Below, in pieces: positions 345-58,590 of a DNA stretch of 64,000 nucleotides (positions within the stretch are counted from its first letter, which is position 1; the number at the start of each line of letters is the position of its first letter). The position numbers were made by a program, and so were the translations under genes. This DNA is from Octopus vulgaris (taxonomy: Eukaryota). The notes below the pieces were generated by a model. It did no database searches, was not told where the DNA came from, and worked only from the letters and a program-made list of their open reading frames with translations. The stretch lies in the NCBI GenBank assembly GCA_951406725.2, contig OX597827.1, forward strand, positions 63,674,001-63,738,000, read 5' to 3'.

Positions 345-590
345 CACGATCTTTTATACAATATAAAGCCAAAACAATGCGAAATAAATGCAACATAGAT
401 CACAAGAAAACAAATATATGAGTTAATGTAGACTTACCTTGTATTCAATATTGTGGGGTCAATTTCTTGAAAATGGGGTCATAACCCCAAAATATTGAAT
501 ACAAGGTCAGTCTACATTTGTTTTCTTGTGATTTACCTTGCATTTACTTTGCATTGTTTTGGCCTTATCCACGATCTTTTATACAATATA
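345..590 (+). mobile_element. Penelope/retrozyme-like fold-back remnant with a degenerate hammerhead at its centre
   Basis: About 90-bp imperfect inverted arms (363-459 / 484-568); direct repeat cacgatcttttatacaatata at 345-365 and 570-590; TTC-TTGAAAA-T-GGGGT cata ACCCC-AAAA-TATT-GAA at 464-499. Confidence 0.55.
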
Positions 591-1199
591 TATATATATA
601 TATATATATATATATATATATATATATGTATATATACACGCATATATATATCTAAATATACACATGCATATATATGTTTGTGTATGTATATGTGTGTGTG
701 TATTTGTGTTACTTTGCCTTGACATCACATATCAATTGTAAATGAGTGCCACTGTTATACAGGTGGTGTCTTTCATTTCTAATATTCTTTTTGAATACAT
801 GTTTGGCCATGGAGAAATAATATCTTGCTTGGTAGCAGTGAGAATTGGTGACAGGAAGTGCATCCAGCCATAGAATATGTGCCTCAACAAACTCTGTCCT
901 CCCAGTACAAGCACAGAAAAGTGGACATTAAAATGACAATGACGATGGTGGTGATGATGATGAGGATGATGATAGATGTAGTGGGCTGAATAAATGTCAC
1001 TATACATATAATTGCATGTTACTTATGCTGTTGATTCCATCACTCAGAGTTATCAAAAATATTCAAGGCTGATTTGAACCTAAATTATAGAAGTTAGAAG
1101 CATCATATTGAACTCTATTAAGACATTTTGTTGCTTTTGCTAGTTTAACTATCAATTGTCTGTGTTAATCCATTGCTGTCTATGTATTTTCACCTTTAG

Positions 1200-1810
1200 C
1201 TGTGTTAATTACCTGTTTTCTTTTTTGTGTGTGTGTGTGTGTATGTAAACTTATCATCATTATTTGTGTCAAACAACTGTCATTGATGTTAACCCTCTCT
1301 CGTTTGCTCACTGTCATTTCTGTCATCCCATTGCTATTTGTGTCAAATTATGTTCGTGTTAGTTCACTGCCATGTCAATCAACATATAGTTACTCATGCA
1401 CCCTAACCGTCATTTCAGTCAATTCACTGTCATACGTATCCATCTACTCTTACATGTACAAGCTCACTATCATTTCTGTGAATTCAATGCCATGTATCCA
1501 TCTACTGTTATATATACATACATATATATATATATATATATATATATATATATATACACATCAGTCCCCCCCCCCGTCATTTCTGTCAACATTTTATCAT
1601 GTGAGATAACACACAGTTACCTAACTGTCATTTCTGTCAGTTCAGTCCCATGGGTGTCCATCTATGTTTATATGTACTCACTCGCTGTCATATCTGTCAA
1701 TTTACTGCTAAATGTGTCAATGCACTGCCATTTACGTCAAATTATTATCTTTTGTGTTGACATTTTACCATGTGAATCAACACATGGTTATTTGTATCAG
1801 CTCACTGGTA
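1200..1810. repeat. Old degenerate minisatellite (ctcactgtcatttctgtcaattcactg..., roughly 60-bp units)
   Basis: The motif gtcatttctgtca recurs at about 1313, 1409, 1469, 1576, 1627 and 1687. Confidence 0.6.
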
Positions 1811-1813
1811 TCT

Positions 1814-1990
1814 TATTTCTTTATTGCCCACAAGGGGCTAAACAGGTTGACTTTGCCTTTCATCCTTTCGGGGTCGATAAATTAAGTACCAGTTATGCAC
1901 CGGGGTTCGATGTAATTGACTTAATCCCTTTGTCTGTCCTCGTTTGTCCCCTCTGTGTTTAGCCCCTTGTGGGCAATAAAGAATAAAATA
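1814..1990 (+). mobile_element. SINE family B, 5'-truncated, with an inverted copy of its own 3' end at the 5' junction
   Basis: 1814-1843 tatttctttattgcccacaaggggctaaaca is the reverse complement of the tail at about 1956-1985; the body has gcctttcatcctttcggggtcgataaattaagtaccag. Confidence 0.8.
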
Positions 1991-2329
1991 TTGCGAGGCC
2001 TAGTGCTGGTGTACTTAGTATGATGTGGGAGTAGTATACACTGTATGGTGTTACATACTGTTGTATGATGTGACCCAGGGTGGTATGCAGTGGCATGGCA
2101 TGCTGTGGTCTGGTATTGTAGGCAATGACATAACATGGTGTGGTATAAGAAAGTATGGTGCAGTATAGAGTGATATGAGCAAGACAGTAGATGAAGATAA
2201 TTCTAAATTTCTATGGAATTTGCAGGAAATATCATTTATTTATTTATTGACATATTTTAAAGTAAAGTCTCATTCGTTGATAATATTATTTTTGGTTCAA
2301 GAAAATCAGTTTCTTTCACTATATTTACA

Positions 2330-55650: not shown

Positions 55651-56629
55651 AGGCAATCATTAAATTGTTGGATAGAATGCCTTATAGCATTTGTTCTGAC
55701 AGTCTGCTGTCTGAGTTCAAATCCTGCTAAGGTAATCTGGTATCCTTTCTTCCTTTTGTAGGGGTGGATTTAATAAAATAAAGTACCAATGAAGGACCAT
55801 GTGTCAACAGAATTGTTAGAGTTGTCAGGAAGCAAGATACCTTGTGGTATTTATGGTAGTTCTTTGAATTCTGATAGCAACACATGTGATAACACTGGTA
55901 CCAAGCTATGTCAGCCCAAGTCAGAGGTTTTACTCTTATATAAAACGCATCTATGGTGTAGAGAATGAAACCTTGCGTATCTGGGTAACTACCTGTCATC
56001 CTTAAAAACTTCTTTCTCAAGATGCATAATCGATCTTGACCAATAGAAGTCTTACTTACCAGAATTCTTTTTCTTAAATTTTTTTTTTATCTTTTACTTG
56101 TTTCAGTCATTGGACTGCTGCCATGTTGTGACACCACCTTGAAAGGTTTTTAGTTTTAACAAATTGATACCAGTACACGTGTTTTTCTTTAAGTCTGTTA
56201 TTCATTCCGTCAGACTCTTTTACTGAACTACTAATTTATGGTAGACATAAGCAAACCAACACTAATTTTCAGTCAGTGGGTGGAGGAGAAACAGAGAGGA
56301 AAACACACACACATGATGAGATTCCTCACAATTGTTTCTATGTACCAAATTCATTCACAAGACATTTGTTGGTTCAGTATGAGACACTTACTCAAGGTGC
56401 CATGTCATGGGACTGAACCTGGAACCATTATTGTTGTAGTTATCGTTATTATTGTCATTTCCGCTGAGGTCAACTTTGGGAGTCAATAAATTAAATACCA
56501 GTGAAACACTGGGGGCAATATAATCAACTAGTCTCCTCCTGCAAAATTTCAGGTCTTGTAGAAAGGTTAATTATCATTATCATCCTCTTCATCATACAAA
56601 AGCTATATTTAGTTTAATTTGTAGAGATG

Positions 56630-56896
56630 TTATCCTGCAACATGGCCAAACATGCTGCCTGATTTTCCAGGTTAGAACCTGCTTACTGTGTTCTCTTCAC
56701 TGAGGACCCGGCTGAGTTGACAGCTCATATTGATTGACCACATGGTCACAGCAGATGAGGAAGTATCTCACAGAGATGGAGCCTGACTGGAACTATGCTG
56801 GATGGGTCACCCAAGACAATGCAGGACTATACAGACAAATAGTAAATGCAGCAACATGCTGCAACAACTCATGCCTTCACACCTGATCCAACCTGA
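56630..56896 (+). pseudogene. RTE-clade LINE 3' end remnant (third RTE lineage in the window)
   Basis: HAA*FSRLEPAYCVLFTEDP.../TWSQQMRKYLTEM...YRQIVNAATCCNNSCLHT*, then a cctga repeat. Confidence 0.55.
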
Positions 56897-57501
56897 TGTT
56901 ATCCTGAGGTTTAGCAGCCACAAGTCTTGTCAAATTTCAAGAATCTTTTCTCAAGATGCTTACAGAATTCAGCTATACATTATTCTGCAACTGGAAAATA
57001 CAGAACTCAATTCCAGTATCCCTCCATGTCAGTTTGGGCATTGAGGCGAGTGCACCAGTTATCATGGGAACAGTTGTACCTTTGTTTTCCATCAAATAGT
57101 CATACACAGTTCAGTGATAAGTGATATTGCTACAGCCTAAGTTGAACAGAATCAAATACTTCATCCTTTGTTCCATTCACAATGGCAGGGCTGTTATAGT
57201 TAACAAACCAGACATTGTTCCTAAACAATGGAAAAGTAATCTCACAATATTTAGGTGTATTCCTGTTATTTCCTACATAAACTGTGTCATTGAGCGCTGA
57301 TTCTGTGAAGTATGTGATGTGTGAGTTGTGTTATTTTATTGTGCAGTGATTGTGTGACTGATTTTATAGATTGTATGTGTTTTTATATGTCGGTGCATAG
57401 ACTATAATGTGTGTGTGTGTTGTAATATTATATTGAAAGTGTTATGGGTTAACACTGGAAGCAAAAAACATCTGCAGAAAGTAATACATAGATGTGTATA
57501 A

Positions 57502-57732
57502 GGCGGCGAGCTGGCAGAAACGTTAGCGTACTGGGCGAAATGCTTAGCGGTATTTCGTCTGCTGTTACGATCTGAGTTCAAATTCCGCCAAGGTCGACTT
57601 TGCCTTTCATCCTTTCAGGGTTGATAAATTAAGTACCAGTTACGCACTGGGGTCAATTTAATCAACTTAATCCCTTTGTCTGTCCTTGTTTGTCCCCTCT
57701 ATGCTTATCCCCTTGTGAGCAATAAAGAAATA
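57502..57732 (+). mobile_element. SINE family B with 20-bp TSD
   Basis: agaaagtaataca.agatgt at 57476-57495 and 57733-57752. Confidence 0.9.
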
Positions 57733-58175
57733 AGAAAGTAATACACAGATGTTTTTACAACATTTGGGTTAACAAAAGTCTGCTATAACCAAATGTTTGT
57801 GTACCTGCAGGGGCCACAGACCCTACTAATATTAGGGTTGACAAACACAGATGCACAAACATACACACACACACACACACAGAGAAATACATGCACACAA
57901 ATACACACACACACATATATACAACAGGCTTCTTTCAGTTTCCGTCTACCAAATCCACTCACAAGGCTTTGGTCACCTATTGCACCTGTACAGGTAATGT
58001 TGATTTGATGGAGGGAGTGAGCTTATGTGTACACAGACATTTGATCACTATAAACAAATCGTATGTGTGGTTGTTCGGTAAGAAATTGTCGAACCCTCAT
58101 ACATCATCTAATGACAGGAGAATTCATTATATACATACATATATATATATATATATATATATATATATATATATA

Positions 58176-58590
58176 TAGTATTATTAGTGAATTGAAGAAA
58201 TGGAGTTGAACGAAGATTGAACAGAATTCCTTTTATTGCATTCTACACATGCTTTGCTGCGCCTCTGTTCTGTTTTGTTCTGCCAACGGAATTCCTATTT
58301 TTTTCCTGAAGAGAAAGCCACAATATGGTATCCTTATTTAATCAGAATTTGGAAAATTGTGGCTTTTGAAACATATGTAGAATGCAATAAAAGGAATTCT
58401 GTTCAATCTTCGTTCAACTCCATTTCTTCAATTCACTAATAATACTAAAATTCAATTATCCGCACCAACGCACGGTTGCAACACCAAAAGGTTTTATCTC
58501 CAACCGTGCTTTCTTCTGCTGTGATTTTTGATACCAAGGTATCGGTTAAACTTTTGATTAATCTGCAACAAGATTATTCATCTTTCTATA
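58176..58590 (+). mobile_element. Penelope/retrozyme-like element: 76-bp inverted repeat around an intact hammerhead
   Basis: Arms 58176-58251 and 58372-58447 (1 mismatch seen); bounded by (TA)n on both sides. Confidence 0.7.
58303..58382 (+). ncRNA. Type-I hammerhead ribozyme with intact core
   Basis: TTC CTGAAGA GAAAGCCACAAT..ATTGTGGCTTTT GAAA CATATGT A GAA; 12-bp stem II; palindromic stem III; predicted cleavage after 58379. Confidence 0.75.

Follow-up and report, generated by a model that had tools for sequence, protein, structure and literature searches.

Hammerhead ribozymes have been described in the pseudo-long terminal repeats of Penelope-like elements (Cervera and de la Pena 2014, PMC4209133), and the present analysis concerns eleven motifs of this type in 64,000 nucleotides of Octopus vulgaris DNA (contig OX597827.1, positions 63,674,001 to 63,738,000; G000:C14:63674001-63738000). 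This whole stretch is called the window below; it has a GC content of 37%, is rich in TA, CA, and trinucleotide tracts, and comes from a genome of 2.8 Gb on about 30 large contigs. The main text of the 2014 paper describes a type-I topology with a short helix I and a palindromic helix III, an unpaired base after A9, a U3-A8 variant, and many families per genome; most of the motifs it describes are single ones from truncated elements, and pairs occur on opposite strands. The elements studied here share these traits. Unlike the hammerheads described there, four of our families (B, C, E, and G) have 30-95 nt between the core halves, and A6U (family A2) or A13C (family D) is present family-wide, variants that Lunse et al. 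2017 or supplements may list.

Two clades described in the text of Craig et al. (2021, PMC8557442) are close to the families studied here. Families B and E share with the Hydra clade a C-terminal GIY-YIG endonuclease without the two-cysteine pair, a CxxC at the end, a hammerhead, and insertion into (TA)n; further clade traits are DKT, RW, and CxH in B, and the CxCX5C linker in E. Unlike the Hydra clade, B has no CxCX5C linker and yet ends in TA tracts. Families A and D differ from the Neptune clade as described there by their long 3′ untranslated regions (UTRs), which are CA-rich in A and internally repeated in D. Family C is comparable to the non-LTR (long terminal repeat) retrozymes described by Cervera and de la Pena (2020, PMC7229834): it shares with them head-to-tail repeats lacking an open reading frame (ORF), one type-I hammerhead per unit, a GC content of 34%, dispersed monomers in addition to an array, and a host genome with Penelope-like elements. 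At about 550 nt, its unit exceeds the 170-400 nt given in that text, but falls within the 51-972 bp given in the text of a July 2026 preprint (Li et al., 10.64898/2026.07.22.740005). That preprint argues from vertebrate data that such elements are non-autonomous Penelope derivatives, and its main text names no mollusc or cephalopod.

Hammerheads in Penelope ends, truncated single motifs in large numbers, and tandem retrozymes are already published. A first reading of the window from its letters (the sequence-only reading) had spoken of a poorly annotated class, and this is right only in part: the class is described in the three papers above (PMC4209133, PMC7229834, PMC8557442), whereas the main text of a 2026 octopus repeat annotation (PMC13282606), which reports 31 recently active Penelope-like families, does not contain the words hammerhead, ribozyme, or retrozyme. 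A literature search by title or abstract, with supplements outside its scope, found no octopus hammerhead study.

Hammerhead motifs and upstream coding sequence

Hammerhead-type motifs had been noticed at eleven places in the window, and all eleven are present as type-I hammerhead-like motifs. Ten of these sites belong to multi-copy families, and the eleventh (54181) is single-copy. From the comparisons reported below, we consider it highly probable that nine of the motifs lie in 3′ ends of Penelope-like families left as stumps, and that the tenth belongs to a protein-free tandem unit that probably uses the same machinery. The features are listed here with the family names that follow from this reading; each site is named by one end of its helix I.

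280..591, + strand: Family F, Penelope-like 3′ end; direct copy 458-591 and inverted 5′-truncated copy 280-459, then (TA)n.
464-499, + strand: Site 464, hammerhead of family F; core start 467, family-wide U3-A8 core UUGAAAA, G12 to A decay.
13179..13375, + strand: Family A stump, probably Neptune-type, ending in (TA)n; hammerhead 13248-13282, core start 13252, G8 and G12 to A.
13643..13837, - strand: Family G stump, an old family whose endonuclease matches Hydra-type queries; core start 13820.
15813..15990, + strand: Diverged family A relative (about 71% identity); hammerhead 15876-15910, core start 15880.
32740..32972, - strand: Family A2 stump; hammerhead 32917-32882, core start 32913, family-wide A6U core.
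40285..40765, - strand: Family C, flanked by TA tracts; part of one monomer of a unit (about 550 nt) that has no ORF; hammerhead 40556-40483, core start 40552, G8 to A.
51498..51742, - strand: Family E stump, probably Hydra-type; hammerhead 51656-51596, core start 51651, G12 to A.
51914..52170, - strand: Family A stump; intact minimal hammerhead 52089-52055, core start 52085.
53860..54054, + strand: Family D stump, probably Neptune-type; direct copy 53926-54054 and short inverted copy 53860-53916, core start 53928.
54183..54214, - strand: Site H (54181), core start 54210; has CUGAUGA, GAAA, and a 5-bp helix II but neither helix I nor helix III; single copy, unconfirmed.
58176..58590, + strand: Family B, young, probably Hydra-type 3′ end; direct copy 58250-58590 and inverted copy 58176-58254, flanked at either end by TA tracts.

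The motifs differ in their architecture. The hammerhead of family B (58303-58382, core start 58306) is intact, with a 12-bp helix II. In the family G hammerhead (site 13703; 13825-13702), both core strings are intact and helix III is an 8-nt palindrome, with 95 nt between the core halves and an A-G mismatch at the helix II base. The motif of family D at site 53922 (53926-53960) has GCAA in place of GAAA, a C-C at the helix II base, and a helix I of 2 bp, and site 15876 is decayed at G12 and at a CpG of helix III. The description of all sites as minimal hammerheads thus suits some of them, but not those of E, C, B, and G, where 30, 45-46, 55, and 95 nt, respectively, separate the core halves. 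Similarly, the claim of at least six unrelated families is correct in that several families are present, but A, the relative at 15876, and A2 form one related group. The truncated copy reported at 54181 exists as a motif and has no family: a DNA search, an exact pattern, and a local BLAST found no second copy.

The palindrome at 280-591 was also considered as a miniature inverted-repeat transposable element, a reading that was rejected, as it consists of direct and inverted truncated copies of family F. Next to the family A stump at 51914..52170 lies a 50-nt 3′ tip of family E (52179-52228), so that 51498-52228 holds three successive Penelope ends (E, A, and the E tip), an arrangement consistent with repeated insertion into the same TA tracts.

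Consistent with the sequence-only reading, tblastn found no Penelope reverse transcriptase (RT) or GIY-YIG coding remnant in the window, an absence that is attributable to 5′ truncation of the copies. Linkage of the families to Penelope-like RT/GIY-YIG ORFs was therefore looked for at other loci, with opposite-strand coding matches (L240, L251, L353/L411, and L367) left out, and was found for A, A2, B, D, E, F, and G. In longer copies of these families, the ribozyme lies about 0.1-1.9 kb downstream of same-strand RT/GIY-YIG coding sequence. The ORF upstream is intact in B; RT and endonuclease are both present in broken form in A, D, and E; and only the endonuclease is present in F, G, and A2. 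These families consequently do not fit the earlier idea of 150-400-bp non-autonomous elements resembling short interspersed elements (SINEs). The assignment to Penelope-type hammerheads, in contrast, was borne out by this position and by the unpaired base, the U3-A8 variant, and the palindromic helix III. The terminal repeats of A, A2, B, D, E, F, and G all carry a type-I hammerhead with palindromic helix III, those of D, G, and A2 deviating at the core or the helix II base.

Identity to the window copy reaches 99% among family B copies, the longest of which extend 5′ into a GIY-YIG endonuclease frame. When its endonuclease protein was searched against the genome, 16,294 candidates were obtained, and six of the 150 that were scored lay in open frames of 885-908 aa. 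The ribozyme region was located downstream of the ORF in 30/30 short and 18/18 long loci. In L197, a full direct ribozyme-bearing copy stands on either side of an 899-aa ORF, and an inverted ribozyme-bearing copy precedes the ORF in L194, L196, L200, L201, and others. The protein contains YRDD, DKT, and RW motifs, a GIY-YIG core without the cysteine pair, and CxxC and CxH at its end. It has 413 homologs; the ORF was not recognised by a Pfam search, and a PDB sequence search gave no meaningful match. The ORF is about 900 aa long, compared with about 700 aa in the homologs, and in place of the CxCX5C linker present in homologs it has a Ser/Asn-rich insert of more than 100 aa (L195:3004-5703, L196:2890-5616). 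Nevertheless, 24/25 copies of this linker-less family end in TA/CA tracts, a combination that bears on the proposed connection between linker and targeting.

For family A, Neptune-type RT and endonuclease are followed by a CA-rich UTR of about 1.6-1.9 kb and then by the ribozyme; homology between L272 and L273 is unbroken over 3 kb, from RT through endonuclease and 3′ UTR to the ribozyme, and two more loci (L216 and L220) have the same linkage. The GIY-YIG domain of family A matched Pfam at E 6e-4, under the curated cut-off. In L385 and L379, the family D ribozyme lies behind coding sequence of Neptune type. L092 and L281 also have endonuclease remnants upstream of D, but these were not accepted as a link, as a TA tract and another ribozyme family intervene. 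Both A and D have a CX2-5CxxC linker and a CCHH cysteine pair (the Neptune signature), and no intact full-length ORF of either was recovered among the loci examined. The family E ribozyme follows Hydra-type ORFs with the CxCX5C linker in L200 and L282, and fragments of this family have no cysteine pair and do have CxxC. A Nematis type was considered for B and E and discarded, as the motif list in the text of PMC8557442 indicates Hydra. These motifs suggest that A and D belong to the Neptune clade, and B and E to the Hydra clade. The endonuclease is within about 100 nt of the ribozyme in family F (L126 and L130), and endonuclease remnants precede family G in 3/30 loci (L421, L426, and L429). 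For family A2, which was analysed through copies lying inside loci gathered for other families, the ORF-ribozyme link is the weakest.

On the basis of known Penelope biology, the GIY-YIG nuclease would nick (TA)n, and the RT would copy the RNA from its 3′ end by target priming and mostly terminate early, leaving thousands of ribozyme-bearing stumps. The ribozyme would survive in almost every insertion, and the ORF would not, because copying starts at the 3′ end and usually stops early. In tandem full-length elements, two predicted hammerheads would join by their palindromic helices III and cleave the precursor RNA at UH; dimer cleavage is weak in vitro even in published cases described in the text of PMC4209133. 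The window's stumps, like other solo copies, would lack such a partner and decay neutrally through CpG changes.

The tandem unit of family C

Family C differs from the other families in what lies upstream. When sequence was followed upstream from the ribozyme, it re-entered the 3′ end of the unit itself in almost all of the junctions listed. One array (G000:C2:212.108-212.119 Mb) contains about 21 head-to-tail units of about 550 nt each; 17 units fit the intact-core pattern, and an inverted copy and (TA)n stand at the array ends. The longest ORF starting with methionine in the unit is 41-50 aa. No same-strand Penelope ORF was found beside family C in 57 partly overlapping loci. The circular fold of the unit is modestly stabler than shuffles (z -2.1, -2.3). 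Contigs from four runs that are only guessed to be RNA cover parts of the unit, and two of these step back by 552 nt, which tandem DNA explains too. Copies are scattered over many chromosomes, and the copy in the window is a partial monomer with a decayed core. The layout of the unit indicates that family C is likely a protein-free non-LTR retrozyme, and it is the only family that we read in this manner. Transcripts of the array would be cut to monomers of about 550 nt, which might then be circularised, and a Penelope-like RT/endonuclease would re-insert them in trans. The non-autonomous nature proposed earlier for all of the elements thus applies to family C alone, whose unit is longer than the 150-400 bp that had been suggested.

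Among the alternatives, the one that survives best is that family C has not moved in trans, but is a local satellite expansion of a Penelope terminal repeat, or belongs, as a terminal repeat, to a rare autonomous element outside our samples. Local tandem expansion of Penelope ends is discussed in the text of the 2026 preprint (10.64898/2026.07.22.740005), the loci examined beside family C number just 57 and overlap in part, and no partner ORF sharing the ends of family C was found among 434 loci. This explanation has to account for the dispersal of copies across many chromosomes, for copies that end in TA/CA tracts (15/25) or have an inverted 5′ copy (6/25), and for upstream sequence that re-enters the unit's own 3′ end, and we regard it as unlikely, though it deserves consideration.

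Diverged relatives of the C unit with 68-86% identity over parts were observed at L290:4350-4975, L049, L087, L124, and L281; one of them, with TA ends and an inverted copy, has a core start resembling that of a hammerhead. A second ORF-less array, with a 359-nt unit, came from the content-blind genome sample (L285:2100-4750; G000:C1, near 20.003 Mb). It ends in (TA)n and has a compact, canonical-looking type-I hammerhead with a GUC site, represented by five direct and two inverted strict matches.

Truncated copies, insertion scars, and the chance expectation

Insertion scars were surveyed in 160 copies from families A-G (A2 outside), with the window's own copy counted in each set. A TA/CA tract followed the 3′ end in 124/160 copies, compared with 28/160 control windows (A 28/30, B 24/25, C 15/25, D 20/20, E 16/20, F 13/20, and G 8/20), in agreement with the earlier remark that the motifs sit in such tracts. 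An inverted 5′ copy preceded 52/160 copies (A 0, B 18, C 6, D 5, E 4, F 17, and G 2), or 46/135 when C is excluded, with zero in A; in the window, this scar is present at sites 464, 53922, and 58303. According to the text of PMC8557442, Penelope-like elements are heavily truncated at the 5′ end, form partial tandems and inverted 5′ copies, and target (TA)n.

These scars bear on a second alternative, in which the short copies are dedicated ribozyme-bearing SINE-like elements amplified from short masters, and not truncations. In its favour, most family A copies are about 215 nt long with a common 5′ start near one point, the window has no coding remnant, family C has no ORF, and short non-autonomous Penelope derivatives exist (MRC1, in the text of PMC8557442; also the bioRxiv text 10.64898/2026.07.22.740005). 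A SINE-like element would have a fixed 5′ end without continuity into an ORF. The 5′ ends of B, D, E, F, and G copies are instead ragged and nested, grading into UTR and ORF; family A extends over more than 1.6 kb to the endonuclease in four loci; and inverted 5′ copies signal truncation events. We consider this alternative improbable for the short copies in general, and family A may include a short non-autonomous derivative.

Several points weigh against reading the motifs as stumps of Penelope-like elements. Many family A copies begin near one point and 0/30 are inverted, and a non-autonomous derivative would look alike. The family G link is confined to the 3/30 loci given above, at 67-72% DNA identity, with a microsatellite inside the 3′ UTR in L429. 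The A2 link consists mainly of one locus (L113, 74% identity to the window copy) among 46 A2-like matches. Clade calls are derived from motifs and not from a tree, because Pfam did not recognise the family B ORF. In addition, monomer folds of the window sites are no stabler than those of shuffles (z +0.7 to -1.7).

To compare the motif with chance, a strict descriptor was used, consisting of CUG[A/U]NGA or UUG[A/U]NAA, a helix II of at least 4 bp with an optional extra base, GAAA, a palindromic helix III, UH, and a helix I of at least 3 bp; U at core position 6 was admitted only after site 32913 had been inspected. The descriptor matched the window three times (58306+, 52085-, and 32913-), compared with a mean of 0.07 and a maximum of 1 in 30 block-wise dinucleotide shuffles. 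In a genome sample of 60 evenly spaced 10-kb pieces (599,800 bases), 19 strict matches were found, compared with 1, 2, 1, 3, and 0 in five shuffles. The motif is thus denser than in dinucleotide-shuffled controls in both samples. The decayed sites rest on their families' evidence and not on descriptor matches, and cores are conserved in at least 80% of family copies except at CpG. Helix I is GUUU/AAAC in 45 copies of A and CUUU/AAAG in 23 copies of A2, a covariation between the two families, and helix III of family C remains palindromic through sequence changes; the conservation and covariation expected of true families are therefore present. Detection with Infernal, as had been suggested, failed: an Rfam search of the window gave 0 matches at the gathering score, and no hammerhead was among the 150 weak matches listed of 362, those listed being microsatellites that match miRNA models. 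Chance matches within AT-rich repeat DNA, to which the silence of Rfam and the single-copy site 54181 (a comparable half motif arises in 6/100 window shuffles) might point, are refuted for ten sites by these excesses, conserved cores, and covariations, and are extremely improbable as an explanation of the whole.

A density of about one element per 6 kb had been proposed; this holds for the window itself, but the 600-kb sample has 19 copies of these families, or 1 per 32 kb, in a comparison where the families were picked from the window and the sample holds further families. One per 6 kb thus overstates the genome density of these families. Counted by the strict motif, the window has 1 per 21 kb, close to the 1 per 32 kb of the sample. 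Genome searches gave 2445 candidates for A, 4465 for A2, 1556 for B, 678 for C, 913 for D, 3825 for E, 1117 for F, and 1398 for G; these are first-look candidates and not copy numbers, and 40 per family were scored. Extrapolated roughly from the 600-kb sample, the genome would have about 5 x 10^4 loci whose motif looks intact (the 19 matches come from 11-13 independent loci) and about 9 x 10^4 copies of the families found in the window. Further hammerhead families, not present in the window, were observed at L287, L290, L298, L306, L315, L326, L335, L338, L092, and L100, several with a UUGANAA core, and 38 distinct stem signatures were counted across all loci examined.

Other repeats of the window include minisatellites at 4210-4918 (130 nt), 10209-10662 (166/44 nt), and 59911-60563 (33 nt). 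The 130-nt array has CUGAUGA...GAAA five times on the minus strand, and it fails the helix descriptor. A 231-aa open frame at 50474-51169 (-) presumably represents the RT C-terminus of a CR1/L2-type long interspersed element (LINE), judging from its motifs. Long LINE-type open frames (519-1031 aa) were also seen near Penelope or retrozyme loci (L276:1550-4645, L209, L210, and L284).

Core deviations and their meaning

The window sites had been said to decay mainly by CpG-type changes. This is so at 5/11 sites (464, 13248, 15876, 40483, and 51596; G8 or G12 to A). When window copies were compared with their families, three such family-wide core deviations were found: U3-A8 in F, A6U in A2, and A13C in D. 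The core of family F is UUGAAAA throughout the family; this covariant U3-A8 core is known from Penelope hammerheads in the text of PMC4209133, and it is reported to be active (PMC3088659). In family A2, 27/29 copies have U at core position 6, where 60/61 family A copies have A; A6C, which is comparable to this A6U, is slow (PMC3088659). In family D, GCAA replaces GAAA in 21/29 copies. Relatives of D (L395, L399, and L026) keep the normal GAAA, some of them with a U3-A8 core, and because of this GCAA appears to have arisen inside the D group and still spread. The cores of these two large families, A2 (A6U) and D (A13C with a collapsed helix I), would be expected to cleave slowly or not at all.

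Three groups merit further attention, namely the families with deviant cores, family B with its missing linker, and the arrays of retrozymes. We put forward tentatively, with somewhat less than even confidence, a combined reading in which A2 and D would have spread with slow or dead cores, cleavage being either dispensable or carried out by an unrecognised variant fold; the young family B would still target TA without the zinc-finger linker to which this ability has been ascribed; and at least two retrozyme arrays (about 550 and 359 nt) would share inversion and (TA)n scars with a family that has an intact ORF. If this is true, the octopus would be a natural experiment on what Penelope-like elements need, and a direct test of trans mobilisation of retrozymes by Penelope proteins.

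The main value of these findings lies in annotation and test material, as Rfam misses these elements. Stumps recognised as Penelope 3′ ends would no longer be misfiled as SINEs or unknown repeats, and the core-deviant families and retrozyme arrays touch two open questions raised in the literature, namely the role of the hammerhead in Penelope-like elements and the enzyme that moves animal retrozymes.

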